This document shows positions 7,057 through 33,064 of a DNA stretch of 64,000 nt, in pieces. How positions within the stretch are numbered: the stretch's first letter is position 1; the number at the start of each line of letters is the position of its first letter. The notes beneath the pieces were generated by a model, which was not told the DNA's origin, did no database searches, and saw nothing but the letters and a program-made list of their open reading frames with translations. The stretch is taken from positions 3,680,001-3,744,000 of the forward strand of contig OZ245033.1 in NCBI GenBank assembly GCA_965224025.1. Direction: 5' to 3'. Origin of the DNA: Candidatus Multivorans sp. GTDB taxonomy: Bacteria; Acidobacteriota; Thermoanaerobaculia; Multivoradales; Multivoraceae. A program made the translations under genes and the position numbers.

Positions 7057-7233
7057 AGGTTCCTCTTATCTCCCGGCGCCGACCTCACCGCATCGGTTCT
7101 CGTGTTTGGCGCAGGCGAGATCGGCGGCGCCCTCCGCTCCGCAGCCAATCCGCTCACACGGAATCGTATCGCGGCCCGCGGCGTCGCCCGACCTCCACCG
7201 GCTGTGACGGACGCCTCGATTGACCCCGCCGGT

Positions 7234-9078: not shown

Positions 9079-10829
9079 GGCTTCTCGACGGCTAAGCCGG
9101 CGCCTCGCCGCAACAGGTGATAGCGGCTCGGTTCGAGGCCGCCAAACGCCTCCGCCGACCCGTCCGGCCACACCACCTCGACCATTGCCGTAGCCGGCTC
9201 GCCGGATAGCGTTAGCGGAAACAGGAGCCGCGGATCGCTGGCGGCGGCGTAGCTGCCGTCCGTGTGCGCCCAATGCCAGCCGCTTCGGCCCGCGATCCGG
9301 GCGCGGGCGCCGTAGACGTCGACAATTCTCGACGCAGCCTTTCCATCGGCCGGGGTCGCCGAACCCGCGGCGGCGCCGACGGCTGAGACCAGCCGGACAC
9401 CAAGCCAGGCCCCGCCAGGCGGCTGACGGTTCAACAGAACTCGCGCGCGGCCGCCGTTGTTCGTGATCACGAGGTCCGGGTCGCCGTCGTTGTCCAGATC
9501 GCCGACCGCGAGCCCCCGGCTTACTTCGCTCAGGACCGGACGCTCCCGCTCCACAGCAGGCACTGCCTCGAACCGGCCGCCTCCGAGGCCCCGGAAGAGC
9601 TGGTTCTCCATCCGCAGGGGATGCGGCTCGCCGGCTTCGACCTGCTCCTCGATCCGACGTACCGCGCCGTTGACGACGACCAGGTCGAGCACGCCGTCGC
9701 CGTCGTAGTCGAGCGCCGCGGTGCCGAACCCCGTCATCGGCCAGCTCGGGTCGACCAGGCCGCCCTCACGCGAACGATCGGCGAACAGTCCCTCGCCGTC
9801 GTTCAGGTACAGCGTGTTGTGCTCCCGCACGAGGTGAGACAAGAAGATGTCCGGAGCCCCGTTGCCGTCGAAGTCCGCGACCGCGACGCCCATGCTCGCC
9901 TGGGCCCGCCCGTCGCGGTCAAAGGCGGCGCCGGCGAAGACCGCGTCCTCCACGAAGGTGCCGTCCCCCTGGTTGAGCCAGAGTTGGTTGGCCATCTGGT
10001 CGTTGGCGACGTAGAGGTCGATCCGACCGTCGCCGTTGAAGTCGACCGCCGCGGCGCCCAGGGCGGTGTGCGGGGCGCTGGCCAGCCCCGATCGCTCCGT
10101 CGCGTCGAGGAAAACGCCGTTGCCGAGATTGCGCAGCAGGCGGTCGCCCTCGGCCGGCTGGCTCAGCGGCCCGCAGTAGTCCGGCCGGCCGCTGGTCAGG
10201 AAACACTGCTTCCGGTTGGCGCGGTGGAAGCGGTGGTAGTTGCCGACGTAGAGGTCGAGCCAGCCGTCGGCATCGTAGTCGAAGAAGGTCGCCGGGACGC
10301 TGAAACGCCGGTCGTCCGCGCCGGCGCGCTCGGTGACGTCCTCGAAACCGGCGCCTCCGCTGTTGCGGAGCAGTTGGTTCGACCCCAGGTTGGTCACGTA
10401 CAGATCGATGTAGCCGTCCCGGTCGTAATCGCCGGTGGCGACGCCGATGTTGTAGCCGGAGGAATCGAGGCCCAACTCGGCGGTGACGTCGACGAACCGC
10501 AGTTTCGTCTCGCCGGCCTCCTTCAGGTCGTTGCGGAAGATGCGGTCGCCCGCCGGCCTATCGGCCCAACGAGAGAACACCGGCGCGCGGCCCTCGTCGC
10601 CCTCGAACTCTCGGCCCTGGCCCAGGTAGATGTCCAGGTCTCCGTCGTTGTCGTAGTCGATCAGGGCAACTCCAGGACCGACCACCTCCGCCGTGTAGAG
10701 CTGCCCCGTCATGCCGTTGAAGTGGAGGAAGTCGATCCCGAGTTCCTCAGCGACTTCCTCGAACGCGGGCGTCGCGCCGCCGGCCGCAACCGCCAGACAA
10801 CCGGACACGAAGACGAGCAGCGCGGCCAT
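9075..10829 (-). CDS. CRTAC1-family protein (FG-GAP repeats + ASPIC/UnbV)
   Basis: DYDNDGDLD, DYDRDGYID and DFNGDGRID repeats, SRGLAVGDLDNDGDPD, GSYAAASDPRLLF; signal peptide. Confidence 0.9.
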   Translation of the reverse strand: MAALLVFVSGCLAVAAGGATPAFEEVAEELGIDFLHFNGMTGQLYTAEVVGPGVALIDYDNDGDLDIYLGQGREFEGDEGRAPVFSRWADRPAGDRIFRNDLKEAGETKLRFVDVTAELGLDSSGYNIGVATGDYDRDGYIDLYVTNLGSNQLLRNSGGAGFEDVTERAGADDRRFSVPATFFDYDADGWLDLYVGNYHRFHRANRKQCFLTSGRPDYCGPLSQPAEGDRLLRNLGNGVFLDATERSGLASAPHTALGAAAVDFNGDGRIDLYVANDQMANQLWLNQGDGTFVEDAVFAGAAFDRDGRAQASMGVAVADFDGNGAPDIFLSHLVREHNTLYLNDGEGLFADRSREGGLVDPSWPMTGFGTAALDYDGDGVLDLVVVNGAVRRIEEQVEAGEPHPLRMENQLFRGLGGGRFEAVPAVERERPVLSEVSRGLAVGDLDNDGDPDLVITNNGGRARVLLNRQPPGGAWLGVRLVSAVGAAAGSATPADGKAASRIVDVYGARARIAGRSGWHWAHTDGSYAAASDPRLLFPLTLSGEPATAMVEVVWPDGSAEAFGGLEPSRYHLLRRGAGLAVEKP

Positions 10830-10926
10830 GGGCAGTGGAGACTATCGAGCCCAGCGTCCAGAGCACTGAATCGTGAACCAGTATGTTGGATCCCGGCGCC
10901 CATCCGGACCCCGCCCACGCCCGGAT

Positions 10927-10942
10927 TTGACATGAGCGTCAA
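10927..10942. promoter_or_regulatory. TTGAC-N6-GTCAA inverted repeat overlapping a -35 hexamer in the divergent CRTAC1/TBDR intergenic region
   Basis: TTGACATGAGCGTCAA at 10927-10942. TTGACA is a perfect -35, but the -10 match downstream is weak. Confidence 0.4.
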
Positions 10943-11010
10943 GAGTCGGTGAGGATTCGCTGCTTACTTTCAACCGTTGGCTCATCCAACCGACAAGGAG
11001 AAGGACTGAG

Positions 11011-14000
11011 ATGAAGCGACTGTTCCTGGCCGCGTTGCTGGTTCTGATGCCCGTCTGCGCATTCGCGGACGCGCCGGAAACCGCGACGATCAGCGGCCGA
11101 ATTGTGGATCCCGGCGGCTCCCCGCTGCCCGGCGTGAGCGTCACGCTGAGCGGCGAGCGCGGCGACAAGTTCGGCATCACCGACGAGAACGGCTCCTACC
11201 GGTTCGTCGGCGTGGTGCCGGGCGACTACACCATGACCGCCACGCTGGAGGGCCTGGGCGAAGGCCGGGCCGACGTGCGCGCCGTCGCCGGCGACCGCAA
11301 GTCCCTCGACGTCACGTTGCAGGCCACGATCGAGGGCGAGGTCACCGTCACCGGCGAGACGCCCATGGTCGACAAGTTCAACGTCTCCGCCGGCGCCACC
11401 GTCTCCGGCGAGATCGGCGAACAGATCGGCGGCACGACCCGCACCTACTACGGCATCATCAACGCCCTCCCCGGCGTCACCGCCGACGCGGAGAACGACG
11501 ACATCCAGGGGACGCGGCCGGCCGTCAACGGCGCCCACTTCGCGGACCAGGGCGTGTTCATCGACGGCGTCGACACGACCTTCGCCAAGTTCGGCGGCAG
11601 CCGCGTCCGCGTGCCGACCACGGCGCTGACCGAGGTCTCCATGGAGGCGGGCGGTTCCTCCGCCGAGTACGGCCGCTACGTCGGTTCGGCGACCAACGTG
11701 ATCGTCAAGTCCGGCACCAACCGCTGGCACGCAGACACGCTCTGGAACCACCAGCGGATCGACTGGGGCGCCGACTACAAGGACCAGCCCTCGCTCACCG
11801 AGCGGACCAACAAGCCCTACCCGGCGGACTGGTTCAAGCGCTGTCACGGCGACTCGCGCGACGAGGGTCGCGGACTTATCCCCGGCGGCACCGATGGTTC
11901 CCGCGAACTCGAGCCATGCCGGCCCGGCGGCTCCGAGTGGACCGGCGCCAGCGACGGTTTCGAGGTTTCTCTCGGCGGCCCGATCAAGCGCGACAAGTTC
12001 TGGTTCTACGCCGGCTACAGCGAGTTCGACGACGCCTACGCCGAGCGGCTGATCGGCGGCGACCCCTACGACATCAGCTTGGTCGACGACACGCGGATCC
12101 TGAAGGTGAACCTGCAGTCGAGCGCCGCCCATTCGTTCAACGGCTCGACGATCGACACGCCGACGTTCAGGAACTACTTCAACCAGCAGTCGTTCGACTA
12201 CTGGACCCCGACGCCGCACGAGAACGACAGCGTGCTGGCGACGGTGAACTGGAACTGGGCGGTTTCCTCCAACTGGTTCCTCGAGGCGAAGATCGCCCAG
12301 CAGGAAACGCAGGAGAACAAGTTCCTGGGCTGCCACAACACCTTGGCCCAGGAGAACCCCGATGTCCTCAACGTGGGTGGTACGCCGATCCTCGACTGGC
12401 TCGGGCTGCAGCACCTGCCGGAAGTTCCGGCCGAGATGGTCACCACCTGTCTGCAGGCCAAGGCGCTCGACCGCGGTCCGGAAGCCGGCCATAGCGAGCT
12501 GAACACCTCGGGCGGCGACACGAACTTCGACCTCCGCTTCCCGTTCGATCCGAGCCGGGGATACTTCTGGCCGGGCAACAACTACAACGTGTACGTCGAC
12601 GGTGAAAACCTCGGCGCCTGGCACAACGGCTGGATCCTGTCCGACGGCTTCGGCTTCAATGCCTTCCCGCGCGACCAGGCCAACGTCGGCCTGACCCAGT
12701 TCGTGGGCGCGAACCATGAGCTGAAGTACGGCATCGACTACCAGGACACGAAGTGGGAGGGCGAGAACGCCCGCACGTCATTCATGAACGGCTGGGGCTA
12801 CGACTCCTACAACCCGTTCGGGTATGGCGGCGCCGGCGGTCTGGGTGACGACAGTTGCGGGCTCCAGTGGGCGCGCCCCTTGGACACGTCCCCGGACAAC
12901 CCGTACACGCCAATTCCCGGTGTAGTTCCTCCGCAGACGACCCGCTCCCGCATCTGTACCTATGTTGACTACAACTCGCCGAGGCTGAGTTGCCAGGGTC
13001 CGATCGGCGAGGAACTGACGCCGATCGAAATCACGAGGGTGAACGGTGAGATTCACCGCACGGACTTCGACCAGGGCAGTTGCATCGGCCGCGGCACCGG
13101 CGACGCCGAAATGAAGGACACCGCCTTCTACCTGAGGGATCGCTTCACTATTGGCGACCACTGGACCTTCAACCTCGGCGTACGCGCCGAGATCCAGGAA
13201 GGCTGGAACGACGTGCGCCGCAAGGTGGTCGACTCCACCTACGCCGACCCGCGCGTCAACATCACGTACGATGTGAAGGGAGACGGGCGACTGCTGTTCA
13301 CCGCGAACTGGGGTCAGTACCACGCGATGCTGAACCAGGCCTGGATCTCCGGCGGCGGCGACACGGCCGGCGGCATGCACGACCAGTGGAACGGCTACGA
13401 AGGCTTCGAGGTGTGGCTGTTCTGCGACCCGATCGAGGCAGCCGTGTTCTGTGCCGTCCCGGACCGGACCGACACGCGGGCCAACGGCACCGTCGGCATG
13501 GGCATCCCCGGCTACAACTACGCTTGGAGCACTCTGGTTCCAGGCCTGATGTGGGACGCCGTCCGCCCCTGCCAGGATGGTGAGATGTCCGGCGTCGACT
13601 GCGAAATCTGGGACCACGGCATCGATCCCTACTACCGGGACGATCTGATCATCGGTCTCGAATGGCAGTTCGCTCCGAACTGGGCGCTCGACGTGAAGTA
13701 CATCGACTGGCAGATGCAGGACATGATGTTTTCCAACACCCAGCGCGACCACAAGGCCCGGAACATCTTCATCACCGGCAACTACCACGACCTGGCCGAG
13801 ATCGTCACCAACGCGGCGGATGCGCGTGAGGCGAAGGGCCTTGACAGAAACCTCAACGATGAGGCGCTGGCGCTTGCCGCCCCTGCCAAGAACGGCTATC
13901 GGGGTTTGCAGGTCCAGCTAAACCGGCGGTTCGCCAACGGATGGGCCCTCTACAACAACGTGTCGTGGTCGGAGACGGACACCACAGGCGCCGGCGCTTG

Positions 14001-14637
14001 GTGGAACAACACGAACAGCAGCTACCTCGAGAACCTGAGCGAAGTTGTGACGCAAGAGGTGATCGACAACTGCAACACCGGCCAGACGATCCCGGATCGG
14101 CGCACTGGCCGCACGGAGCTCTTTCCGGTGGACTGCAATCAGGCGCTGGCGGAGTGGATCGGCTACCCGGTGTCGATGATCAACCGCCGCGGCCTGAACC
14201 AGGCCTATGACCGGACCTGGATCTACAACTCCTTCGGCTTCAAGACGTGGCGCCTCGGGAACCAGGAGCTGACCTTGTCCGGCCACCTGAGCTTCCAGAC
14301 TGGAACGCCCTGGGTGCGGAGCGAGGGTGTGACGATCGTAGATATCGATCCGAACGATCAGAAGCCAGGTACGCCGAACGACGGTGTCAGCTTCAACCTG
14401 CATGCTCCGGGCACGCAGGGGCGCTTCACCTCGGACGAGTACACCCTGAACCTGAGCGGCGCTTGGGGCTTCCCGTTGGGCTACCGGGAGGTGCGTGGTG
14501 AACTCCGGGTCGAGGCGCTGAACGTCACCAACCAGCAGCGGCGACGCTCCTGGGGCGGCGACGGCCAGGTCTACCCGGTGCGGCGCTTCTTCCAGCGCCC
14601 GCGCCAGGTGCGCGCCTCGCTGAGGTTCCGCTTCTAG
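11011..14637 (+). CDS. TonB-dependent receptor (Oar-like, N-terminal carboxypeptidase-regulatory-like domain), paralog 1
   Basis: Signal peptide. ISGRIVDPGGSPLPGVSVT...ITDENGSYRF (CarboxypepD_reg), plug motif GGSSAEYGR...NVIVKSGTN, barrel motifs YLRDRFTIGDHWTFNLGVR and PRVNITYD, terminal FRF. RBS AAGGAG. Confidence 0.9.
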   Translation: MKRLFLAALLVLMPVCAFADAPETATISGRIVDPGGSPLPGVSVTLSGERGDKFGITDENGSYRFVGVVPGDYTMTATLEGLGEGRADVRAVAGDRKSLDVTLQATIEGEVTVTGETPMVDKFNVSAGATVSGEIGEQIGGTTRTYYGIINALPGVTADAENDDIQGTRPAVNGAHFADQGVFIDGVDTTFAKFGGSRVRVPTTALTEVSMEAGGSSAEYGRYVGSATNVIVKSGTNRWHADTLWNHQRIDWGADYKDQPSLTERTNKPYPADWFKRCHGDSRDEGRGLIPGGTDGSRELEPCRPGGSEWTGASDGFEVSLGGPIKRDKFWFYAGYSEFDDAYAERLIGGDPYDISLVDDTRILKVNLQSSAAHSFNGSTIDTPTFRNYFNQQSFDYWTPTPHENDSVLATVNWNWAVSSNWFLEAKIAQQETQENKFLGCHNTLAQENPDVLNVGGTPILDWLGLQHLPEVPAEMVTTCLQAKALDRGPEAGHSELNTSGGDTNFDLRFPFDPSRGYFWPGNNYNVYVDGENLGAWHNGWILSDGFGFNAFPRDQANVGLTQFVGANHELKYGIDYQDTKWEGENARTSFMNGWGYDSYNPFGYGGAGGLGDDSCGLQWARPLDTSPDNPYTPIPGVVPPQTTRSRICTYVDYNSPRLSCQGPIGEELTPIEITRVNGEIHRTDFDQGSCIGRGTGDAEMKDTAFYLRDRFTIGDHWTFNLGVRAEIQEGWNDVRRKVVDSTYADPRVNITYDVKGDGRLLFTANWGQYHAMLNQAWISGGGDTAGGMHDQWNGYEGFEVWLFCDPIEAAVFCAVPDRTDTRANGTVGMGIPGYNYAWSTLVPGLMWDAVRPCQDGEMSGVDCEIWDHGIDPYYRDDLIIGLEWQFAPNWALDVKYIDWQMQDMMFSNTQRDHKARNIFITGNYHDLAEIVTNAADAREAKGLDRNLNDEALALAAPAKNGYRGLQVQLNRRFANGWALYNNVSWSETDTTGAGAWWNNTNSSYLENLSEVVTQEVIDNCNTGQTIPDRRTGRTELFPVDCNQALAEWIGYPVSMINRRGLNQAYDRTWIYNSFGFKTWRLGNQELTLSGHLSFQTGTPWVRSEGVTIVDIDPNDQKPGTPNDGVSFNLHAPGTQGRFTSDEYTLNLSGAWGFPLGYREVRGELRVEALNVTNQQRRRSWGGDGQVYPVRRFFQRPRQVRASLRFRF

Positions 14638-14692
14638 GCACCGGACGGTACAGATCGCCGGGCTTCGGCTCAGGCGTTCACAGGATCACGTA

Positions 14693-14722
14693 GGGGAGAG
14701 GGCTTCGGCTCTCTCCCCTTTT
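14693..14722 (+). terminator. Rho-independent terminator of TBDR paralog 1
   Basis: GGGGAGAGGGC-TTCG-GCTCTCTCCCC followed by TTTT. Confidence 0.85.
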
Positions 14723-14740
14723 CCTTTGGGTGCACCGGAC

Positions 14741-14895
14741 TGCCATCCGTGCGCCCGACGACGGGCGCACGGATTGGTTCACGGGTGGCGCGGATCGCGC
14801 CACCCGGGTTCCGGCCGGCATCTGGCCCCTGGGAACGCGGGCGTCTCGCCCGCATCTGGCGCCGGGCAGCACGGGCGCCTCGCCCGCATCTGGCG
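14741..14895 (+). repeat. Family A composite REP-like element, copy 2, plus two inverted REP hairpins
   Basis: TGCCATCCGTGCGCCCGACGACGGGCGCACGGA...GGGTGGCGCGGATCGCGCCACCCGGGTTCC, followed by two CGGGCG(T/C)CTCGCCCGCATCTGGCG units. Confidence 0.85.
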
Positions 14896-15007
14896 CGATG
14901 CCGCAACGACGCGGCGTTACGTCCGCACGGCCAACAACGCCGACAAGCACCCGTTCGATCCAGAATCCCGGATCCCCATTGCCCCACAAGCCCAAATCAC
15001 ACCCTCC

Positions 15008-15035
15008 TTGACATCCGGTTAGACCGTCGTATAGT
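15008..15035 (+). promoter_or_regulatory. Near-consensus sigma70 promoter of TBDR paralog 2
   Basis: TTGACA (15008-15013), 16-bp spacer, TATAGT (15030-15035). RBS GAGGAGGAG before ATG 15076. Confidence 0.7.
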
Positions 15036-15075
15036 CCCTGTCACGTTTCTTACAACTTGATCCGAGGAGGAGCTC

Positions 15076-18000
15076 ATGAAGCGACTCGCAGTGGCTCTGC
15101 TGCTGTTCGTTCCGGTCGGCCTTGTTGCCGACGCGCCGGAGACGGCCACCGTCAGTGGCACAATCGTTGATCCCGGGGGCTCACCCCTGCCGGGCGTCAG
15201 CATCACCCTGTCCAGCGATCGCGGCGACAAGTTCTCGATCACGGACGAGAACGGCAACTACCGCTTTGTCGGCCTCGTCCCCGACGACTACAGCCTGAAG
15301 GCGGAATTGCAAGGCCTTGGCGAAGTCCAGGCCGAGTTCCACGCCGCGGCTGGAGACCGAAAGTCGGTCGACCTGACCCTGCAGGCAGCCATCGAAGGCG
15401 AAGAGCTGACGATCACGGCCGACACGCCCATGGTCGACAAGTTCAACGTCACCGCGGGCACCACCGTCACGTCCGAGATCGGCGAACAGACCGCCGGCAC
15501 GACGCGCACCTACTACGGCGTGATCAACGCGATGCCGGGAGTCACCTCCGACGCACGCAACGACGACATCCAGCAGACGCGGCCATCGGTCAACGGAACC
15601 CACTTCGCCGACCAGGGCGTGTACGTGGACGGCGTCGACACTACGTTCGCCAAGTTCGGCGGCAGCCGCGTCTTCCTGCCGACGACGGCGCTGACCGAGG
15701 TCTCGATGGAGGCTGGCGGCTCCTCCGCGGAGTATGGCCGCTACATCGGCTCGTCGACGAACGTGATCGTCAAGTCGGGCACCAACCGGTGGCACACCGA
15801 CGTCCTCTGGCAGCAACAGTCTGTCGACTGGGGCGCAGACTACAAGGATCAGCCGTCCCTGGAGGAACGGCAGAACAAGCCGTACCCCAGAGATTGGTTC
15901 AAACGCTGCCACGGCGACGAGCGGGACGCCGGTCGGGGCGAGATTCCAGGCGGCACCGATGTCTCGGAGGCTTTCAACACGAACAGACAGGCCTGCCTGC
16001 CCGGCTCCGATGAATGGGCTGGCTCCTCTAGCGGCTACGAGCTCTCGGCAGGCGGTCCCCTCAGGCGGGACAAGTTCTGGTTCTTCCTGGGCGTAAGCGA
16101 GTTCGACGATGCCTACTCGGAGCGGCTGCTCGGCGGTGACCCGTACGACGTCAGCCTCTTCAACGACGCGCGCATCTTCAAGCTGAACATGCAGCCGACG
16201 GCGTCGCATTCGTTTGCCGCTTCGGCAATCGACACGCCGGCGTTCCGGAACTACTTCAACGATCAGTCGTCCGACTACTGGACCCCGACTCCGCACGAGA
16301 ACGACAGCGTGCTGTCGACGATCAACTGGAACTACGCGGTTTCGGGCAACTGGTTCCTGGAAGCCAAGGTCGCCCAGCAGGAAACGCAGGAGAACAAGTA
16401 CCTCTCCTGCTACAACAAGCTGGAGCAGGAGAACCCCGAGGTTCTAAACCCGGACGGCGTTCCTCTTCTCGAGTGGCTGGCCCAGGACAACTTCCCCGAT
16501 GCGCCGGCGCGCATGGTGGAGACCTGCCTGCAGGCGAAGTCGCTCGACCGCGGTCCGATCGCCGGGCACAGCGCGACAAACACTTCGGGCGGCGACACTA
16601 GCTACCCGCTGCGCTTCCCATTCGACCCGAGCCAAGGCATCTTCTACCCGGGCAACAACTACAACATCTACCGGGACAACGAGAACCTCTCGGCTTGGCA
16701 CAACGGCTGGATTCTCTCCGACGGTTTCGGCTTCAACGCATTCCCGCGCGAACAGGCGAACCTCGGTTTGACCCAGTTCGTGGGCGCCAATCACGAGCTG
16801 AAGTACGGCATCGACTACCAGGACACGAAGTGGGAAGGAGAGAACGCCCGAGTTCCCCTGATGGACGGTTGGGCGTTCGATGCAACGAACCCGTTCGGTT
16901 TCCTGAACGCGGGGCAGGACGCCCTTGATTCGTGCTCGGTCTTCCGCAGCGCCGGCACGAATCCCGACAACCCGACTGAAGCTTGGGACGGCTTCCGGAC
17001 CAATCGTGGCCGGAGCTGCTACTTTGTCGACTACAACTCCACCCTTCTGACATGCGAAGGGGTGGCCGGCGACGGCATGCCGCATCGGCCGACTCAAATC
17101 ACTCGGGAAGGCGGGGAAATCGTTCGTACACCTGGCACCTGCGTCGGTCGTGGAACCGGCGACACGGAGGTCCGGGATATCGGCTTCTTCCTGCGCGACC
17201 GCTTCACCATCGGCGATCACTGGACCTTCAACGTGGGTCTCCGCACGGAGAATCAGGAAGCATGGAACGACGTTCGCCGCAGGGTGGTTGACGACAACTA
17301 TGTGGATCCCAGGATCAACATCACATACGACGTGAAGGGAGACGGCCAGTTTCTCCTCAACGCGACCTATGGCCACTATCACGCGATGCTGAACCAGGCC
17401 TGGATCTCAGGCGGCGACGTTGCTCGACCGAGCATGCACGACCTGTGGAACGGCTACGAAGGGCGGGAAGTATTCCTCTTCTGCGACCCGGGTGATGTCG
17501 CGTCGGCCAATCTGCTGGGATTCCTCGGCTTCATCAACTGGAGTTGCAATCTTCCGCAACGTCGCGACACCCTCCGCAACGGCACCGTCGGCCAACCCCT
17601 GCCGGGCTACAACGTGTCCTGGGAACTCGCACAGCCAGGCCTGATGTGGGACGCCGTTCAGGCAGATGTCTTCGACTTTGACGTGCAGACCTACTACAAG
17701 CAGGAGATGATCCTTGGCCTTGAGTGGCAGTTCCGACCCGACTGGGCTCTTGACATCAAGTACATCGACTGGAACATCCAGGATCCGATGTTCTCCAACT
17801 TCCAGTTGGACCATCTGGGTCGGAACATCGGAATCACCGAGAACTACCACGACCTCGCGAAGATCGTCACTGCGTTTGACGACGCTCGAGAGGCGGCGTG
17901 GGTCAGCGCCGGCAACGAACCTGGCACGCGTAACCCCGGCAGCGTTCTGAACCGGGAGGCTCTCGCTCAGGCGGACCCGGCGAAGAACGGTTACAGAGGG

Positions 18001-18750
18001 TTGCAGATCCAGTTGAACCGCCGCTTCGCCGACGGCTGGGCCCTCTACAACAACATCGCGTGGTCCGAGACCGACACGACCGGCGCCGGCGTCTGGTGGA
18101 ACAACACCGAGGGCGACTACCTGGAGGGCGTGCACCTGGTACTCGACGAAACGCACATTGAGCAGTGCCAGACCGGCATGGAGACACCGGACCGCCGGAC
18201 CGGGCGGCTGCCTCTCTATCCTGAGGATTGCGCGCAGAGGCTCAACGAGTGGCTCGGCTACCCGGTGTCCATGATCAACAAGCGCGGCGCCAATAACGTC
18301 GCCGATCGCACGTGGATCTACAACTCCTTCGGATTCAAGACCTGGCGCATCGGGAACCACGACCTGACCCTTGGCGGTCACCTCACCTTCCAGACGGGTA
18401 CACCGTGGGCCCGTTCCGGAGGCGCTTCCTACGTCAAGGACCCGACCGACCCCGCCAACGCGAACACCGATACCCGGCCCGGCACAGCGAACGCTGGCGT
18501 CGGCTTCATCTTCCATCCCTACGGTACGGAAGGGCGTCGAACCTCTGACGAGTACACGCTCAATCTCACTGGCGCCTGGGGATTCCCGATGGGCTACCGC
18601 GACGTGCGTGGCGAATTCAGGGTGGAAGTCAACAATCTGACGAACCAGCAACGCCGTCGTCGCTGGGACGGCGGAGGCTATGTGTACCCCGTGCGCCGGT
18701 ACTTCCAGCGCCCGCGGCAGATCCGAGCCAACATCAAGTTCCGGTTCTAG
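15076..18750 (+). CDS. TonB-dependent receptor (Oar-like), paralog 2
   Basis: Colinear with paralog 1, with long near-identical blocks (e.g. AWHNGWILSDGFGFNAFPR, HELKYGIDYQDTKWEGENAR); terminal FRF. Confidence 0.9.
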   Translation: MKRLAVALLLFVPVGLVADAPETATVSGTIVDPGGSPLPGVSITLSSDRGDKFSITDENGNYRFVGLVPDDYSLKAELQGLGEVQAEFHAAAGDRKSVDLTLQAAIEGEELTITADTPMVDKFNVTAGTTVTSEIGEQTAGTTRTYYGVINAMPGVTSDARNDDIQQTRPSVNGTHFADQGVYVDGVDTTFAKFGGSRVFLPTTALTEVSMEAGGSSAEYGRYIGSSTNVIVKSGTNRWHTDVLWQQQSVDWGADYKDQPSLEERQNKPYPRDWFKRCHGDERDAGRGEIPGGTDVSEAFNTNRQACLPGSDEWAGSSSGYELSAGGPLRRDKFWFFLGVSEFDDAYSERLLGGDPYDVSLFNDARIFKLNMQPTASHSFAASAIDTPAFRNYFNDQSSDYWTPTPHENDSVLSTINWNYAVSGNWFLEAKVAQQETQENKYLSCYNKLEQENPEVLNPDGVPLLEWLAQDNFPDAPARMVETCLQAKSLDRGPIAGHSATNTSGGDTSYPLRFPFDPSQGIFYPGNNYNIYRDNENLSAWHNGWILSDGFGFNAFPREQANLGLTQFVGANHELKYGIDYQDTKWEGENARVPLMDGWAFDATNPFGFLNAGQDALDSCSVFRSAGTNPDNPTEAWDGFRTNRGRSCYFVDYNSTLLTCEGVAGDGMPHRPTQITREGGEIVRTPGTCVGRGTGDTEVRDIGFFLRDRFTIGDHWTFNVGLRTENQEAWNDVRRRVVDDNYVDPRINITYDVKGDGQFLLNATYGHYHAMLNQAWISGGDVARPSMHDLWNGYEGREVFLFCDPGDVASANLLGFLGFINWSCNLPQRRDTLRNGTVGQPLPGYNVSWELAQPGLMWDAVQADVFDFDVQTYYKQEMILGLEWQFRPDWALDIKYIDWNIQDPMFSNFQLDHLGRNIGITENYHDLAKIVTAFDDAREAAWVSAGNEPGTRNPGSVLNREALAQADPAKNGYRGLQIQLNRRFADGWALYNNIAWSETDTTGAGVWWNNTEGDYLEGVHLVLDETHIEQCQTGMETPDRRTGRLPLYPEDCAQRLNEWLGYPVSMINKRGANNVADRTWIYNSFGFKTWRIGNHDLTLGGHLTFQTGTPWARSGGASYVKDPTDPANANTDTRPGTANAGVGFIFHPYGTEGRRTSDEYTLNLTGAWGFPMGYRDVRGEFRVEVNNLTNQQRRRRWDGGGYVYPVRRYFQRPRQIRANIKFRF

Positions 18751-18849
18751 GCCGGATCAAACGGGGGGCAGCAGGACGTTTCTTACTGGATTCCCCTAAC
18801 AATCCGCACCCCACTTTCCAACGTAACCAAGAGAAGGGATCAGCAACGA

Positions 18850-19275
18850 ATGCCGAAAAAACCACCCACTTCAGTCTGCGTACTTCTGAGCGCACTCTTC
18901 CTCGCGCTTCTCCTCGTGTCGGCCTCCTCGGTTTCCGCCCAAGGGAACGACGCAACAGAATGTGGAAACGAAGCAGACTGTGAGACCGACGCGGCGGGCG
19001 ATTCTTATGGAGACCAGCCTGGTGCCTACGACCCCTACGCCGACCCTTACGACGGGCACACGCTTCCTGGGTCCAGCTTCCCCTCGCCACTAGATGTTGG
19101 TTCTATCGGTCCACAGATACCAAACATTGTTGTCAACGTCGATTCACTGGCTCTCGCCTGCAACTTGCTTGATCTCGGCCTCGCGAACAGCGATGAGGAG
19201 ATTATCGACGTGGCGCTGAACGCCTTGGGAGCCAGTTCTGTTGAGGAGACAATCGAGATCTGCAACGACGTCTAG
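18850..19275 (+). CDS. Small, very acidic secreted hypothetical protein with 4 Cys in the mature part
   Basis: Clear Sec signal (KK, hydrophobic core, VSA/Q) and a purine-rich RBS-like stretch upstream. No family recognised. Confidence 0.65.
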   Translation: MPKKPPTSVCVLLSALFLALLLVSASSVSAQGNDATECGNEADCETDAAGDSYGDQPGAYDPYADPYDGHTLPGSSFPSPLDVGSIGPQIPNIVVNVDSLALACNLLDLGLANSDEEIIDVALNALGASSVEETIEICNDV

Positions 19276-19676
19276 TTGGAGCCGGGACACCAACAGACTC
19301 TCCGGCTCTCGGTCAGGGAGTTCTACAGTTGGTTGTGCGAGCGACTGCCTACCAGTACTGAGGCTCGGAACAGCGTTCGGCGACCCGCTCCCGTGCCGGT
19401 GGAAGTCCCGTGGTCCTAACGGAAGCAGCTTCCTTCTCCCTCTCGGCTCCGGCGCATAGTCCTGTGCGGGAGCCATTCCATCGAAAGACGTAGCGTCGAA
19501 AGCTAAACGTTGAAGGCGGGCGCAAGGAAACAACGGCCCTCGTTCACCGTCAACCACGGCCAGGTGGCACCTAAACTTGTCGGTGAGGGGTAGTCACTTC
19601 TGCGGCTGGTAATTGAGTTGCGGCCGGCCGCGTCTGAGTCTCCGAACGCGTAACCAGCGCTTCATATTGCCCCCAA

Positions 19677-22600
19677 ATGCCTCGCTTCGAGCATAGGTTA
19701 GCCCCCGCCTGCCCCGACGGCTGCTATTCCTCGGCTTGGCCGCGCTCACTGCCGGCCCGCTCTTGACCCAACCTGTACCCGATCGGCCACTCATCGTCAC
19801 GGGCACGCTCGTCGACGAGCGCGGCGTTCCCGTCGCCGGCCTGGATGCCGTGCTCCGGCCCTATCCCAGCAACTACGCGCTCGACCTTGACCTTCTCGGC
19901 CGACCGGACGCGCTGCCGGAGGCCGCAGACGGCGTCCGGACCGGCCCGGACGGCACCTTCTCCCTGTCGGCGCCCGCGATCGGGCCCTACCGCCTCGAAG
20001 TCCGGCCAGGGCCGCTAGCGACCGAACGGGCGCTCAGGATCCCCCTCGTCCACCGCGACATTCTGCCGCTCAGGGTTCCCCTGCACCTCGAACCGATTGA
20101 ACTGCCGGACCACCATCCACTGACGATCAAGGCGCTCGATCCGGACGGACGGGCAATCGAGGGCGCCTTCGTGTTCGTCTATCCCACGGCGCAGCAACCG
20201 GAAGGCCCACCCTACCGGCAGACCCACGAGCAGCCCGAACGGCTCCTTGTGGAGCTTGACGGCGCCTCCACGCGCACGGACGCAGATGGTCTGGCGCGGT
20301 TTCTGATGCCCACGAAAGAAGGACGCGTCACCGTCTCCGCGTCTGGATTTGCGCTCCGCACCGCCACCGCGACAGGCGGCCGGGCCGCCTTCCGGCTCCG
20401 TCCCGCACCGGACTTGGCACTTCGCGTCCGCAACCTGGACGGGCGACCCGCACACCGAGCCGCTATCCGCACAGTTGGCCCACGCCCGGTTCCCCTCGGG
20501 TTGACGAACGAGCAGGGCGAGGCGGTGATCGTCATCGCCGCCGATGGTCGGGCCATGTTCGAGGTGGAAACGGCCAGCGGCGCGTTCGCACGCGCTGGGG
20601 CCCGGAATCACACTTCCCGCGGAGACACGTCCCGGTCGTCGATCGTAGAAATCCAACTCCAACGACCGGCGGCGATTCCCGGGCGGATCGCGGATGCCGA
20701 GACGGGATTCGCCGTCCCCGAGGCCGTGGTCTGGGTTCGCTCCGACCCCGGACGAAGCACGGTCGCCGATGGGGCCGGCGTTTTCGAGCTGGCCGCACCC
20801 ATACGGTCTGGCGGCCTTGATATCGGCGTCGTCGCGGGCGGCTACACATCCGCGACGGCGAAAGTCACGGCAGAGCTGCTCCAGGCCTCACAGGGTGTGT
20901 CGATCGGGCTCGCAGCCGCAGCGCCCCTCGCCGGCTGGGTCGTGGACAGCTTCGAACACCCGGTTGCAGGAGCGAACATCCACATCGAGCCAAGCGGCAA
21001 GGGGCGGTTCTTCGGCACACGCTGGGGGCGGTCCGCACGCGCAACGTCGGGGCCGGATGGTTCGTTCTACATCGACAACGCTCTATACGCTAGCGCGTAC
21101 CGCCTCACCGTTGACGCTCCAGCCTTCGCCTCCGTGCAGCACGAACTGCCGCCCCTCCAGCGGAACTCTCCGGCCGCCCCGATCCGCATCGTCCTGACGA
21201 AAGGCCGACAGCCCTGGGGCACGGTCGTTGACGTGGAGCGAGCACCCGTGGCCGGCGCCCAGGTCCGGCTGCTCTGGCCGCCGGACAACCCCGAAGTTGG
21301 AAACAGCTACGGCAGCCAGGAGGCTGCACAACCGGCCAACTCGAACAACCGAGGCGAGTTCGAGTTTCCACTCGTCGCCCCAGGCCCGTACGATCTCCAC
21401 ATTCTGCACCCGGAGTACCTTGATCTGCAGGCCGAAACGGTTGGCGTGCCGCATGGCGGCGGCTACTTCGACCTCGGCGTCTTCACGCTCACGCCGGGCT
21501 CCGAGATTCGCGGCGTAGTGGTCGGCCCAAACGACAATCCCGTCAGCGGAGCCGAAGTCAGCATGAGGCAACGGACGCAGGGCCTGTCGTGGCAGGAGCG
21601 AGCCGCGACCACCGATGAAGAGGGACGGTTTCGGCTGGGCGGACTAGCGCCGGCCCCGACCGACATCATCGCGATCGCGGACGGCTACGCCCCCACGGTC
21701 GTCGAATCGGTCCGGCCCGCAACCGGCGAGCCGATCATGATCGAGATGGCCAAAGGTGCATCGGTGGCTGGATGGGTTCTGGAACCCGATGGAACAGGCG
21801 CCGCCGGAATCGAGGTTACGCTGACCCTGCCGGCGCGCGAAGTGCCCAGGGTGGCCCGGAGACTGCTTGGACAGGATCTGTTCCGCCACGGCCGGACCGA
21901 CGGCGATGGCCGCTTTCGCTTCGACAACGTGGTTCCCGCGAAGTGGACCGCCGAGGCCCGCAACGAGACCTCCGTGGCAACGCAGGAAGGAATCCAACTC
22001 ACGCACGGAGATCTGCGCGAGATCGAACTTCGGCTGAACGCTCCGGACCGGCTGACGGTCTTTGTCACGAACCACCTCGCCGAACCGGTGACAAACGCCG
22101 ATATACGAGCGAGTCCGAAAGACCGCTCTCGCAAACCGGTCTTCGGCGATACCGACGCCGGTGGCCGCGCCATCCTGTGGGTATCCCCGGGCCCCTTAAC
22201 GGTCGTGGTCGAGCATCCCGAACTACTCAGCCGTTCTCGCGAAGTCGTGATCGAACCGGGCGCCAACGAACTCAACCTACAGCTCGACACCGGCTGGGAG
22301 ATCAGCGGTACCGTCCGTTCCGGCGACGGCGCACCCATCCCCGGGGTCGCCGTCGAAGCAAGCAAACAACTAGCCGGCGAAGACGGAGACAACGAAGTGC
22401 CCGTCGTGCTGCGCAGGTTCCGCCGCATACTCGAGCCGCCGGCACGGGCCCTCTCCGACATCGCCGGCGGCTTTCGGTTGGCCGGTCTCGAACGCGGCCG
22501 CTACCGCCTCGTCGCCCGATTGGCCGGATTCACGGAAGGTGAGTTGCCGAACACGATCGAGATCAACGGCCAATCCATCGCCGACGTCACACTCGTACTT

Positions 22601-23122
22601 AAGCCCGGCGCCTCGGTTCAAGGCTTCGTGACCGGGCTCGACAGCGTCGCCTTGGCATCCGCGGAAGTCCAAGCGTGGCAGGGTGTACTGTTTCGGAGGG
22701 CCAAGCCGGGTAGCGATGGCAGCTTCGAACTCAGAGCCCTCGGTGTCGGAACTTGGCAGATGGCGGCCACGACCGGCGAACGGCAATCCCCAACGCAAGA
22801 AGTGCCCCTGGAACCCGGCGAGCAGCGCGCCTTAGTCGAACTTCGGTTCGAGATGGGGTTCCGGCTGTCCGGTCAGGTGTCGGTCACTGGGCAACCAGCC
22901 AGGGGCGGTTTCGTCAGCGCTCTTCTAAGTGGCGGACAACACCCTCGTCGAACTAGAACTGACCACCAGGGCCGGTTCGAGATGGAAGGGCTAGAGGCAG
23001 GCCCCTACGACCTGGAGTTCCGGCACGTCCTCGGCTTCAAACAGGTGCGGCAGATCGACCTTCAAGGCGACTACCACAACGTGCTGGTCAACCTGCAGCC
23101 ACGCCAGGAACCGCCGAACTAG
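19677..23122 (+). CDS. Large carboxypeptidase-regulatory-like (Cna-B-like beta-sandwich) repeat protein; probable 1-bp frameshift in the signal-peptide region
   Basis: ORF 19736-23122 has about ten GxVVDxxGxPVxGA...TDxxGxF repeats. ATG 19677 gives a clean signal peptide only if one C is added to the C5 run at 19702-19706. Confidence 0.8.
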
Positions 23123-23334
23123 CATCGGCCGGTTCAGCAGTTCGCGGGCGCTACTGCCAGAAGCTTCGGAACCGGCAACGCGAAGGCGCCGCCTCTGCTC
23201 AAGATACTGGAGACAAGTGCTCGTGCCTTCCTGGACTGACCGCCATTGCCCGCCTGTTGAGCGTTCGTAGCTCACCCAATCCACGCGGGACCACCTCCTA
23301 AACTGGCCGCACCAGTCCTTTGCGCCCGGCACCA

Positions 23335-23861
23335 CGATCAACCAGCGGGGCGCGAACCACGTCTACGACCGCATGTGGATCTACAACTCCTTCGGGTTCA
23401 AGACCTGGCGGATCGGCAACCAGGATCTGACGGTTGGAGGTCACATCACGTTCCAGACCGGCACCCCCTGGGCTCGGTCCGAGGGTGCGGGCATCAGTGC
23501 TCAAAAGACCTGCGCTCCCGGTGCCAGGCCCGCGGGACTCCGTACCTGCCCGCCGATCACGCCCTCCGACCCGACCACCGACGCACGGCCGGGCACGGCG
23601 AACGGCGGCGTTGGCGTGCGCCTGCACCCCTTCGGGGCGGAAGGACGCCGGACCTCGGACGAGTACACGATCAACCTGAGCGGCGCCTGGGGCTTCCCAT
23701 GGGCTATCGGGAAGTGCGTGGCGAACTCCGGGTCGAGGTGCTCAACGCGACCAACCAGCAGCGCCGCCGGCGCTGGGACGGTCAGGGCGAGGTCTTACCC
23801 CGTGCGCAGGTACTACCAGCGCCCGAGGCAGATGCGAGCCTCGATCAAGTTCCGGTTCTAG
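23335..23861 (+). pseudogene. Orphan 3' cassette of a third TBDR paralog (last ~175 codons) with two compensating frameshifts
   Basis: INQRGANHVYDRMWIYNSFGFKTWRIGNQDLT...QRPRQMRASIKFRF aligns with both TBDR C-termini. A base is missing near 23699 and an extra T lies near 23795. There is no 5' part. Confidence 0.9.
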
Positions 23862-23911
23862 GACCGGATCGACAGAACCTGAGGCTTAGGCCTCCGGTTC
23901 AGAGGAACCAA

Positions 23912-23941
23912 GGGGGAGAGGGCTTCGGCTCTCTCCCTCTT
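23912..23941 (+). terminator. Terminator-like hairpin after the orphan TBDR cassette
   Basis: The core GGGAGAGGGCTTCGGCTCTCTCCC is identical to the terminator at 14693; the T-tail is weaker. Confidence 0.7.
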
Positions 23942-24106
23942 CGTCGTTCATCGTCGCCGCATCCTGCCTGTCTGCGGGCCTGCAAACCCAGGTCCGCGCC
24001 CCGGAATCCGTCCAGGTCTCTGACGGCCTTCTCGCGCGCCGCTCGAAATCGGCGGGGCGCACAGAGACGGTTCACGACGGCAGACCAACGACAGGAGGAT
24101 CGGGCA

Positions 24107-24588
24107 ATGCAAGGCTATGCGGTAGAGTCGGGCGTCCAGGAAACGAGGCGCCGGCTCAAGAAGGCTGGCTTCAAGGAAGACGACCTGGAGGCAATGACCG
24201 AGGTGATCGCCGGCATGGAAGAGAGACTCGCGACGAAGGAGGATCTGGCTAGGGCGGAAGGCGTCCTGAAGCAGGACATCGCCGACGTCCGGGAAGACCT
24301 GAACCAGCTCGCGACCACCGTGGCAACGCATACGACCCGGATCGAGGGCCTGGAAAGGCAATGGAGGCTCTACGTCAGGAGGTCAGGGATCGCTTCGAGA
24401 GCTTCCGACAGGAGATTGCCGCTCAGATGGACGGCCTCCGAGGCCAGATGCACGGCCTGCGGGGAGAGATCAACGGCCTGCGGGGCGAAATGCGGACGAT
24501 CAAGTGGATCGGCGGCGCACTCTTCGCCCTGATGGTCCCGATGGTCGGAGGCATCATCGGTATCGGCCTGCGCCTGGGCCAAGGCTAG
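24107..24588 (+). pseudogene. DUF1640/CCDC90-like coiled-coil membrane-anchored protein, copy 1 (frameshifted)
   Basis: AGGAGG RBS. RRLKKAGF...LATKEDL neck, heptads and C-terminal TM (KWIGGALFALMVPMVGGIIG). One G is missing near 24357 relative to copy 2. Confidence 0.75.
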
Positions 24589-24589
24589 G

Positions 24590-25027
24590 CTTCCCGTCCA
24601 GGTCTGTCGACCGAGCGCGGCTTGCGGAGCTCGGAGAGATACGAGAGGCCGACCTGATTCGTGGCGCGCTCAACTGCCGGAGCGAGGCGGAGTTCCTGGA
24701 GTTCTGCGCGGCGCTTTGCCCGGGTACGGGTGGCTTGCCACTGTAGTTCTGCAGACTCTCTCCCCTCTTTGGCATGGCGGCGGCGACAACGAGCTACAGG
24801 CTCTTGTGACGAGCGAGCCGGTTCTGGTCTTCGGCGCCATGTCCAAGCTGCTCGCAGGAATCCTGCAAAGGAACAAAGACGATGTTCTGCTCACCCACTA
24901 CCACTCGGGCTCGAGGGACGACGACTACGGCCTTGACCCCGACCATCGCGAGGACGGTATGTGCGACTTTGAAGTGAAGAGCGACCGAGTCGCGCTGACG
25001 CTACGATTGCGCGTCGCAGAACCGTAG
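24590..25027 (+). pseudogene. 5'-truncated, probably frameshifted hypothetical gene remnant
   Basis: Two overlapping coding-like frames (...RARLAELGEIREADLIRGALNC.../...GWLATVVLQTL...LRLRVAEP*) with no start or RBS, ending 15 bp before the endolysin gene. Confidence 0.35.
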
Positions 25028-25042: not shown

Positions 25043-25486
25043 ATGCCTGAGTTCAGCGAGACCAGCGAGCAACGGCTCGCTAGTTGCCACCCCGACTTGC
25101 AGCGAGTGCTCCGGGCCGCCATCAGGGGCGGGCCCGACTTCACCGTGCTCTGCGGCCACCGATGCCAGGAAGACCAGGACAGAGCCGTCCGTGAAGGCCG
25201 CAGCCAGGTGCGGTGGCCACAGTCGAAGCACAACCAGGACCCGGCCCTCGCGGTCGACATTGCGCCGTGGCCAATCGACTGGGACGACGCCAACCGGTTC
25301 CGCGTACTGGCCGGCTACGTTCTCGGCGTGGCGGACACACTGGGCGTAGAGCTGAGATGGGGCGGCGACTGGGACCGGGACTACTCCGAGGCCGACGAAC
25401 GGTTCCGCGACCTGCCTCACTTCGAGTTGGTCGGGGATCAGCGAGCCGAACACCGTCCTTCACTGGAGGTATCGCCCGGAAACTGA
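25043..25486 (+). CDS. Phage-type M15 peptidoglycan peptidase (L-Ala-D-Glu peptidase, T5-endolysin-like)
   Basis: S..RL..CHPDL, DFTVLCGHR..E.Q, SKHN..PALAVD, RWGGDW and DLPHFEL. The Zn ligands H/D/H are present; no signal peptide. Confidence 0.85.
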   Translation: MPEFSETSEQRLASCHPDLQRVLRAAIRGGPDFTVLCGHRCQEDQDRAVREGRSQVRWPQSKHNQDPALAVDIAPWPIDWDDANRFRVLAGYVLGVADTLGVELRWGGDWDRDYSEADERFRDLPHFELVGDQRAEHRPSLEVSPGN

Positions 25487-25798
25487 GCCGCCCAAAGCGC
25501 AGAAGGTGAGCCACCCTCGGCTCGCGAGGTCGCCGAGCTCACTGCCGGCGCACGGCTGAATCCGTGCGGCGGTTCCGTCGCCGTTCGCCACCCAGGCGAT
25601 CACGCCGGCGCGGGCGGAAGCGCTGATGACGGCGACACGGAATCCGTCTTTGTCAGTGGCGGCCTTCTACGCGGATCAGGCGGTCGGCGAGCGGAAGGTG
25701 CGCCGGTCGCGATCCGTCGATCGTCGCCGTTCGAGTTGGCGACGGAAGGCATGCACCAGATGTTCACGACGGCTGCACAGTGGCAGGAGGATCAGGAA

Positions 25799-26260
25799 AT
25801 GGGAAGCTATCCAGTACACTCAGGAGTGCGGGAGACAAGGCGTCGGCTTGAGGACGCTGGTTTCAAGGGACTCCAGATGGAGGCACTGGTCGAGATGATG
25901 GCCGGCATGGAAGAAAGGCTCGCGACGAAGGAGGATGTCGCCCATGCCCAAGGCGTTCTGAAGCAGGACATCGCAGAGGTCCGGGAAGACCTGAACCAGC
26001 TCGCGACCACCGTGGCGAAAAACACGACGCGGATCGAGGGCCTGGAACGGGCAATGGAAGCTCTACGTCAGGAGGTCAGGGATCGCTTTGAGGGCTTCCG
26101 GCAGGAGATTGCCGCCAAGATGGACGGCCTGCGGGGAGAGATCAACGGCCTGCGGGGCGAAATGCGGACGATCAAGTGGATCGGCGGCGCAATCTTCGCC
26201 CTGATGGTCCCGATGGTCGGAGGCATCATCGGTATCGCCCTGCGCCTGGGCCAAGGCTAG
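25799..26260 (+). CDS. DUF1640/CCDC90-like coiled-coil membrane-anchored protein, copy 2 (intact)
   Basis: AGGAGG RBS, LATKEDV neck motif, heptad stalk, C-terminal TM; near-identical to 24107-24588. Confidence 0.75.
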   Translation: MGSYPVHSGVRETRRRLEDAGFKGLQMEALVEMMAGMEERLATKEDVAHAQGVLKQDIAEVREDLNQLATTVAKNTTRIEGLERAMEALRQEVRDRFEGFRQEIAAKMDGLRGEINGLRGEMRTIKWIGGAIFALMVPMVGGIIGIALRLGQG

Positions 26261-26806: not shown

Positions 26807-26821
26807 GTCAGAGGCTCGCGA

Positions 26822-27079: not shown

Positions 27080-27147
27080 GGTGTGAAGAGCATAACGCTG
27101 CCGCACCAATGCAGCAACACTCTGTGTGGCTCAGTAGTGGCTCAGTA

Positions 27148-32975: not shown

Positions 32976-33064
32976 ATCGTGACGGAGTCTACATGCGGCG
33001 CGAGGCGCGGCACTCCGTCCACGGGCAGGCTCACGCGCCGCCGGGCGCCGATGCCCAACGCGGT

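Follow-up and report, generated by a model that had tools for sequence, protein, structure and literature searches.

Putatively disulfide-stapled loops in tandem TonB-dependent transporter paralogs of Candidatus Multivorans: a probable case of old and stable substrate specialisation

The window analysed here, 64,000 nucleotides of Candidatus Multivorans sp. (contig OZ245033.1, positions 3,680,001 to 3,744,000 of the forward strand), contains two tandem genes for large outer-membrane receptors, A and B1, and the remnant of a third copy. A first-pass annotation made from the letters alone saw in these genes a beta-barrel displaying interchangeable disulfide-closed loops, diversified for ligand range or for the evasion of phages or a host. 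Our analysis leads to a different reading: A and B1 are probably substrate-specialised paralogs of the TonB-dependent transporter (TBDT) type with disulfide-stapled loops, old and stable rather than in active diversification. The evidence that carries this reading is the predicted fold, the strict pairing of the loop cysteines (Cys), the fixed pattern of these pairs in four orthogroups of related genomes and the signature of purifying selection in the stapled segments. The two genes, with positions counted from the first letter of the window, are as follows.

11011 to 14637, + strand: TBDT paralog A, protein P0001, 1208 aa, an intact open reading frame (ORF) by its translation
15076 to 18750, + strand: TBDT paralog B1, protein P0002, 1224 aa, an intact ORF with six Cys pairs
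Domains of P0001 (residues): signal peptide 1-19; CarboxypepD_reg extension 20-105; linker 106-129; plug 130-241; 22-strand barrel 242-1208

In the mechanism that we propose, each long extracellular loop (L1, L4, L5, L7, L9) would be pinned by one or two disulfides, presumably the work of a periplasmic DsbA-type oxidase; the bonds would turn the loops into rigid folded sub-domains, together making up a ligand-binding crown above the plug. Ancient tandem duplications would have given rise to four orthogroups, A, B1, B2 and B3, kept in fixed order in Candidatus Multivorans and in related sponge-associated Thermoanaerobaculia, and the copies would have diverged mainly inside the stapled loop segments before being held by purifying selection within each orthogroup. 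Because the divergence lies mainly in the stapled segments and was followed by purifying selection, ligand specialisation is the most likely outcome, each paralog importing its own distinct and stable substrate. That this substrate is an organic oligomer or macromolecule, and not a siderophore or vitamin, is a guess on our part.

Predicted fold and cysteine pairs

AlphaFold models were obtained for mature P0001 (predicted local distance difference test, pLDDT, 84.9; predicted template-modelling score, pTM, 0.81) and for residues 105-1224 of P0002 (pLDDT 83.8, pTM 0.86). The two models agree on a disordered linker, a plug and 22 strands in the same order, with the Cys in the same loops; the count of 22 was read from DSSP, a short strand after strand 15 being taken as part of L8. 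The N-terminal extension appears as a beta-sandwich at model residues 6-79 of P0001, and Pfam family PF13620 matches with 59 bits in P0001 (residues 26-104) and 56.5 bits in P0002 (residues 25-103). The Pfam barrel model PF25183 matches P0001 with 38.4 bits against a cut-off of 30, and both proteins end in ...RFRF, that is, with a C-terminal aromatic residue. NCBIfam assigned neither receptor to any family.

Foldseek placed FusA (4zgv, E 1.2e-31) first and YddB (6ofr, 1.1e-27) second, and a large number of siderophore, haem and cobalamin receptors after them. Over model residues 97-1189, plug included, the VIA Z to FusA, FecA, Cir and BtuB is 34-36; the VIA-align comparisons gave Z 35.9 for FusA (673 residues aligned), Z 30.5 for YddB (672 aligned) and Z 34.8 for BtuB (525 of 549 residues aligned at 2.9 A). 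The beta-barrel receptors of the first-pass annotation are thereby borne out by two models and by a VIA Z of about 35 to solved transporters. Identity to FusA and YddB is 9-14%, and both differ from the present receptors in being without the CarboxypepD_reg extension (model residues 1-96 stay unaligned). Since FusA is tied in VIA Z with FecA, Cir and BtuB, the substrate is not readable from the FusA match.

According to one report (PMC6434023), an N-terminal PF13620 extension before plug and barrel defines the Oar subclass, and Oar of Myxococcus xanthus has a signal peptide, this extension, a TonB box, a plug and a predicted 22-strand barrel. In their modelled domain order P0001 and P0002 are likewise TBDTs with Oar-subclass architecture. 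They would differ from Oar in having six or seven conserved loop Cys pairs, much longer loops and tandem arrays of two to four paralogs. The genome contains nine matches to TonB_C (PF03544). A SusC/SusD-type pair was considered and rejected, no SusD family member having been found among the selected ORFs that were scanned with Pfam on both sides, which gave FG-GAP/ASPIC, TPR, AAA_14/DUF4143, PIN and other families. Acidobacteriota encode many Oar-type TBDTs, and to our knowledge almost none of them has a known substrate.

Of the 15 Cys of P0001 one (C16) falls in the signal peptide, and P0002 has 12, so the translations confirm the earlier counts of 14 and 12 mature Cys. They pair as 278/303, 441/480, 616/649, 661/691, 805/814, 854/864 and 1021/1042 in P0001, and as 278/307, 445/484, 620/648, 660/689, 803/824 and 1031/1052 in P0002, which is without an equivalent of 854/864.

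11842 to 11919, + strand: Cys278-Cys303 of A, within L1, which connects the first two barrel strands
12331 to 12450, + strand: Cys441-Cys480 of A, in loop L4 with helices inside; pLDDT of the block about 90
12856 to 13083, + strand: L5 core of A, sub-loops 616-649 and 661-691; the most divergent part, with long and short forms in clade A
13423 to 13452, + strand: Cys805-Cys814 of A, within L7; the intervening stretch has 8 residues in A and 20 in B1, B2 and B3
13570 to 13602, + strand: Cys854-Cys864, in loop L7; the clade-A-specific seventh pair
14071 to 14136, + strand: Cys1021-Cys1042 of A, in loop L9, linking two helices that DSSP places at model residues 996-1007 and 1023-1030
15907-15996, 16408-16527, 16933-17019, 17053-17142, 17482-17547 and 18166-18231, + strand: the Cys pairs of B1

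Connections of 63-112 residues form the Cys-bearing loops L1, L4, L5, L7 and L9, and short turns of 2-12 residues come between them; most loop pLDDT values are in the range 85-94. In both models every Cys pair belongs to a long connection of the same parity, whether the count starts from the plug or from the C-terminal strand. Because this parity is that of the outer side in the established topology of such barrels, the Cys-bearing loops would be placed outside, and from the models we infer their outward orientation.

The behaviour of the pairs was followed in an alignment of 78 family members, namely P0001, P0002 and 76 of the matches P0005-P0089 (those with 1000 aa or more; nine that fell short of this were dropped), drawn from the best 120 of 430 matches. 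The number of mature Cys is even in all 78, being 4, 6, 8, 10, 12 or 14. Five pairs are never represented by a single Cys: 278/303 (both partners in 21 members, neither in 57), 441/480 (both in 45), 616/649 (in all 78), 661/691 (19) and 854/864 (7). Single Cys do exist at 805/814 (seven) and at 1021/1042 (eight, with both partners in 70), and seven of them in each pair come from the same seven most distant sequences, in which the first partner of both pairs is absent. The gain and loss of Cys in pairs, which the first-pass annotation had noticed in the window copies, extends in this way to the family, and the even count together with the joint gain and loss of partners supports the view that the pairs behave like disulfides. 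Protein length follows Cys number (Spearman 0.78), a relation which indicates that added Cys pairs accompanied loop lengthening in a stepwise manner.

A candidate for the oxidase is a DsbA-like, probably membrane-anchored protein of 372 aa at about 1.18 Mb of the same genome (L060:922-2040; G000:C1), which has a CPYC motif, an N-terminal hydrophobic segment and a long linker, and which alone in the genome matches Thioredoxin_4 (PF13462). Oxidation of receptor loops by DsbA has a precedent in E. coli, where Cys pairs engineered into loops of BtuB and FecA were unlabelled unless dsbA was knocked out, a result that the authors read as DsbA oxidising the engineered pairs; wild-type FecA itself has no Cys (PMC10288552). 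In the present genome more than 20 further ORFs resemble TonB-dependent receptors (TBDRs); they have 0-11 Cys, mostly no more than four, with 10 in the next richest close paralog, and P0001 and P0002 are the Cys-richest. Native loop disulfides are found in FhuA and FepA of E. coli. ZnuD of Neisseria meningitidis has a Cys pair in its L3 (PMC2895646). The likeness consists in a Cys pair that closes part of an extracellular TBDR loop; unlike ZnuD, FhuA and FepA, which have one or two pairs, the present receptors have six or seven, which are distributed among five or six loops and were apparently gained stepwise with loop length. Loop disulfides in TBDRs are already known, and the receptors described here stand out by how many pairs they have and by the stepwise accretion of these. 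The open literature that was searched yielded no papers on multi-disulfide TBDR loops or on these receptors in sponge Acidobacteriota.

Divergence, orthogroups and selection

P0001 and P0002 are identical in 66% of their alignment (825 of 1244 columns), and their differences are distributed very unevenly. Identity is lowest in the Cys-bounded segments (71 of 181 columns, 39%) and rises through the other loop columns (305 of 478, 64%) and the strands and turns (247 of 333, 74%) to the plug (94 of 112, 84%); by Fisher's test the Cys-bounded columns differ from the other loop columns with p = 2e-8, and with p = 9e-4 once gap columns are left out. The two L5 sub-loops retain 9 of 35 and 12 of 31 identical columns. 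Length differences are confined to the signal peptide, the N-terminal extension and the linker (one residue each) and to L1, L5, L7, L8 and L10. The Cys-bounded segments are thus the most divergent parts, in keeping with the first-pass annotation, by which most divergent segments are bounded by two Cys; the near-identical blocks described on either side of such segments hold at the protein level (84-100%) and not at the DNA level, where identity is only about 82-89%.

A scan of species genomes yielded 47 loci (L013-L059), 46 of them with receptor ORFs, in metagenome-assembled genomes of Candidatus Multivorans, Multivoraceae, Thermoanaerobaculia and other Acidobacteriota. The + strand of these loci and of the window was screened for ORFs that have a recognisable start and 1150 aa or more; 84 were kept and 15 dropped, and of the dropped ones at least three are true receptor genes whose start was missed by the pattern and most of the others look like spurious high-GC frames. 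Removal of identical sequences left 79, and two of these are cut off by locus ends, which accounts for odd C-terminal lengths in the alignment. The tree consists of four clades, A (36 genes, with P0001), B1 (5, with P0002), B2 (24) and B3 (14), and the gene order is constant: one A gene or sometimes two come first, B1 or B2 next and B3 last. Six Cys pairs are present in all 79 locus genes, so that partners occur together here as they do in the wider family. All 36 A genes and none of the 43 B genes have the pair 854/864, and a pair in L10 is found in 24 of 24 B2 and 14 of 14 B3 genes and in none of B1. This distribution indicates that A, B1, B2 and B3 are ancient orthogroups that span many species, with the Cys pattern fixed within each.

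Some relatives carry two tandem A-type genes (L014/L056, L015/L058, L043). Split or truncated receptor ORFs occur in several arrays (e.g. L029, L031, L051, L034, L039) and represent either pseudogenes or assembly frameshifts.

Within clades the identity of the Cys-bounded segments is 76% (A), 82% (B2) and 89% (B3), with other loop parts at 88-93%, values which suggest that these segments are far from hypervariable within orthogroups. The pooled ratio of nonsynonymous to synonymous substitution rates (dN/dS, Nei-Gojobori) in the Cys-bounded segments is 0.235 in A, 0.225 in B2, 0.119 in B3 and 0.086 in B1, and in B3 and B1 it lies below that of the strands. Sliding windows of 15 codons exceed 1 in 2 of 253 cases in clade A, 0 of 254 in B2 and 0 of 252 in B3. 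Both of the A windows lie in gap-rich columns outside the Cys-bounded segments, in the start extension and in a rare L10 insertion; the windows over the Cys loops reach at most 0.5-0.6 (in B2), none being above 0.61. Ratios of 0.086-0.235 point to purifying selection on the Cys-bounded loops within orthogroups.

Is there exchange between the tandem copies of one genome? When A genes are compared with B genes at third codon positions, identity is 0.630 for pairs from one genome (n=42) and 0.629 for pairs from different genomes (n=1506), and eight sub-regions give an equally flat profile. Because the values within and between genomes are equal, there is no cassette exchange between the tandem copies, and the flat profile indicates that the conserved blocks are held by constraint and codon usage rather than by gene conversion. 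Gene conversion between paralogs had been prompted as a candidate by a third-position identity of 0.80-0.85 in plug and strand blocks, and it was rejected as the between-genome values are the same; a cassette or gene-conversion variation system was rejected on the same lack of exchange. A diversity-generating retroelement target was also rejected. The only Pfam RVT_1 match of the genome is at C1:4442667, some 740 kb from the window and so not a nearby reverse transcriptase, and the direct repeats in 10500-24600 consist of paralog homology and one 34-nt intergenic tandem, with no template/variable repeat pair.

Loop L5 behaves in a more complex manner. Seven of the 36 clade-A genes, that of the window among them, have the first L5 sub-loop in a long form; the other 29 are without this form and mostly share one short form. 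The DNA tree without L5 needs four changes of L5 form and rejects uniting the seven long-form genes (delta log-likelihood, delta lnL, 513; p of the approximately unbiased test, p-AU, 7.5e-95; the group was defined after the tree was seen), and the L5-only tree unites them with a support of 99 in the Shimodaira-Hasegawa-like approximate likelihood ratio test (SH-aLRT). The L5 of the window gene is 77-85% identical in DNA to that of the long-form carriers L026 and L023, against a gene-wide 86%, and 73-77% identical to that of L018. Because L5 identity among the long-form carriers is not above the gene-wide value, the two forms are old. Incongruence is a property of the whole gene: all 16 contiguous regions, plug and N-terminal domain included, reject the rest-of-gene tree (delta lnL 57-275), that of L5 (275) being the largest among similar-sized regions, and the scattered-codon control (six sets of 111 codons) gives 18-62, with five of the six sets rejecting at 0.05. 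The distribution of L5 forms needs recombination among orthologs, and recombination is gene-wide. As every region rejects the rest-of-gene tree, L5 is the strongest case among regions of its size and no special cassette, and the candidate of L5-specific cassette exchange was toned down for the same reason. What stands of the interchangeable loops is that L5 forms recombine among orthologs; their specificity to loops does not stand, nor does exchange between tandem copies.

FrpB/FetA of Neisseria meningitidis is antigenically variable, and structures of its F3-3 and F5-1 variants are among the Foldseek matches. It resembles clade-A L5 in that variation is concentrated in one surface loop and spread by recombination; unlike in FrpB/FetA, dN/dS here is no more than 0.24, only two old L5 forms are present and recombination is gene-wide.

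The surrounding locus

The remaining features of the array and its flanks are listed below.

4481 to 10829, - strand: divergently transcribed neighbours by Pfam, FG-GAP/UnbV_ASPIC (4481-6991), TPR (7234-9273) and FG-GAP/UnbV_ASPIC (9075-10829)
14692 to 14719, + strand: terminator-like hairpin after gene A, a 12-pair stem followed by a T-run
14745 to 14865, no strand assigned: palindromic intergenic repeat resembling a repetitive extragenic palindrome (REP) or a miniature inverted-repeat transposable element (MITE), with about 120-140 genome copies (blastn-short)
15008 to 15035, + strand: sigma-70-like promoter before B1, TTGACA, 16-nt spacer, TATAGT, 11 of 12 matches
19736 to 23122, + strand: P0003, ten CarboxypepD_reg repeats, no Cys, between B1 and the receptor remnant
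23325 to 23861, + strand: B2-type TBDT pseudogene remnant, about the last 156 residues, with an internal frame change

The third copy had been taken for an orphan receptor with a Cys pair of its own. It matches only P0001 residues 1053-1208 from about 23325 onwards (tblastn-type match), it is 70-78% identical to B2 C-termini, and its three-frame translation changes frame and returns between AWGFP and YPVRR. Since only about 156 terminal residues match and the frame switches, the copy is a frameshifted, 5'-truncated B2 pseudogene. Two of its four Cys (115 and 123) are out-of-frame artefacts, and its KTC...RTC pair is the L10 pair of B2 type, which, being present in every B2 and B3 gene, is not unique to this copy.

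P0003 (1128 aa) begins with TTG, is without a clear signal peptide and matches PF13620 over 10 stretches with 290.7 bits in Pfam; a homolog was found in 0 of the 46 related loci. It occupies the site of the B2 receptor gene of the relatives, beside the B2 remnant, and because of this position its arrival may be linked to the event that truncated the B2 gene.

The FG-GAP/ASPIC, TPR and FG-GAP/ASPIC genes upstream have homologs (>50% query coverage) in 38, 39 and 40 of the 46 related loci, and a further FG-GAP/ASPIC gene lies downstream of the array in 40 related loci. Downstream of the array in the window is a variable accessory patch. It holds an ORF with a weak Peptidase_M15_4 match (25043-25486), a small coiled-coil membrane protein (25736-26260) with a partial second copy at about 24100-24400, and a PIN-domain protein on the - strand (26354-27109, E 4e-14) beside a weak ribbon-helix-helix protein, the two resembling a VapBC-like toxin-antitoxin pair. 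Farther along, the genes for a PSCyt1/PSCyt2/PSD1 (DUF1549/DUF1553) protein and, next to it, a DUF1501 protein (32993-36905) form a planctomycete-type pair in an acidobacterium, and 37016-43163 encodes two VWA-domain proteins of roughly 1000 aa each.

Because of the hairpin after A and the promoter-like site before B1, the two receptor genes appear to be separate transcription units. The promoter-like site is unique in 10700-19800, where shuffled sequences give a mean of 1.1. Between the genes, the palindromic element reaches a contig depth of 8277 in run X1 and contains the 34-nt tandem at 14814-14881. All 24 sequencing runs found were Logan contigs; those of X1, X3, X4 and X8 were compared with the window, and over the receptor genes they are too fragmented and too mixed in strains for variant frequencies to be derived. 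In X3, a sponge metatranscriptome library, contigs cover 15147-18759 at 97-100% identity and gene A barely; this is a weak hint at transcription of B1, given that RNA libraries can contain DNA. Gene A is partly uncovered in the contigs of X3, X4 and X8, and no weight is placed on the gaps. At gathering scores Rfam gave 0 matches in the window as a whole, and in 10800-15100 it gave 0 at E up to 1.

Competing explanations and significance

Several observations weigh against the reading of A and B1 as stable, substrate-specialised transporters with stapled loops. In sequence-family terms the plug is poorly recognised: the Pfam Plug model gives 22.9 bits in P0002 against a cut-off of 23.9 and has no match in P0001. 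The TonB-box-like motifs EVTVTGE (A) and ELTITAD (B1), located in the low-pLDDT linker at model residues 87-109, were judged against the general TonB-box consensus and not by a scored model. The disulfide bonds themselves we infer from parity and co-occurrence only, and a search of the genome, rated 100% complete, detected neither DsbB nor VKOR. As regards the substrate, no siderophore genes were found among the scanned neighbour ORFs and no neighbour offers a hint, nor do the leaders, no riboswitch having been found near the receptor genes with Rfam. As regards stability, the Cys-bounded segments are the fastest-evolving class in A and B2 (76% and 82% against 88-89% for other loop parts), and the dN/dS ratios are pooled over all pairs of a clade, which are non-independent and come from a recombining gene. 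Since two L5 forms were moved by recombination, some diversifying or balancing pressure on L5 also stays conceivable.

How do other explanations account for these data? The concentration of divergence and of all indels in loops, mostly in Cys-bounded segments, the variable copy number of the arrays with their pseudogene remnants and the two discrete, patchily distributed and recombinant L5 forms of clade A (delta lnL 275 against 18-62 for scattered codons) would all suit a diversifying system of surface receptors, with disulfide-closed loops that are exchanged or vary quickly for a wider ligand range or for escape from phages or the host. We nevertheless consider such a system very unlikely. 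Purifying selection is indicated for all clades and loops, the orthogroups, which keep their order across many species, are each fixed for their Cys pattern and loop types, and gene conversion between tandem copies is lacking. The only RVT_1 match is about 740 kb away, the repeats are those of paralog homology and the 34-nt intergenic tandem, the incongruence affects all 16 regions and is not loop-specific, and both L5 forms are old (77-85% DNA identity, not above the gene-wide 86%). A narrower version would see in the L5 double Cys loop an old two-allele polymorphism within a modular disulfide-stapled recognition crown, maintained by balancing selection from recognition by phages or the host and passed from species to species through recombination, with the array A-B1/B2-B3 as the receptor repertoire of sponge-associated Thermoanaerobaculia for host-derived or seawater macromolecules; we regard this as speculative and unlikely.

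The remaining alternatives concern function and chemistry rather than variation. The Oar-subclass architecture and the many secreted-looking repeat proteins around the array (FG-GAP/ASPIC, TPR and the CarboxypepD_reg repeat protein) would be compatible with an Oar-like role, that is, TonB-dependent export of protein across the outer membrane instead of nutrient import, Oar being required for secretion of the protease PopC (PMC6434023). Architecture is, however, the only link to Oar, no PopC-like protease is present among the neighbours scanned, the genome encodes its more than 20 other TBDR-like ORFs, and four diverged paralogs with distinct loop crowns better fit the capture of ligands from outside; we hold export to be distinctly unlikely. 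It would be more surprising still if the Cys pairs served to gate the loops by sensing redox state or binding metal, and were not structural disulfides. The failure to detect DsbB and VKOR could be cited for this, as could ZnuD of Neisseria, which takes zinc via a Cys-bounded loop rich in His and Asp (PMC2895646). The spacings of 8-38 residues, the strict pairing and the even counts are instead a disulfide signature, no CxxC or His-rich motifs were found within the Cys-bounded segments, and seven separate pairs over five loops are hard to reconcile with metal sites.

The stable, substrate-specialised transporters favoured here are no new kind of system, and the results lower rather than raise the case for a diversifying receptor. 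What they offer is a rule for the subfamily, by which each new long loop segment brings its own Cys pair, and a defined set of rigid loop modules on which structural biologists could test ligand binding. The conserved locus, with its four orthogroups and its FG-GAP/ASPIC and TPR neighbours, may report which nutrients are taken up by sponge symbionts.

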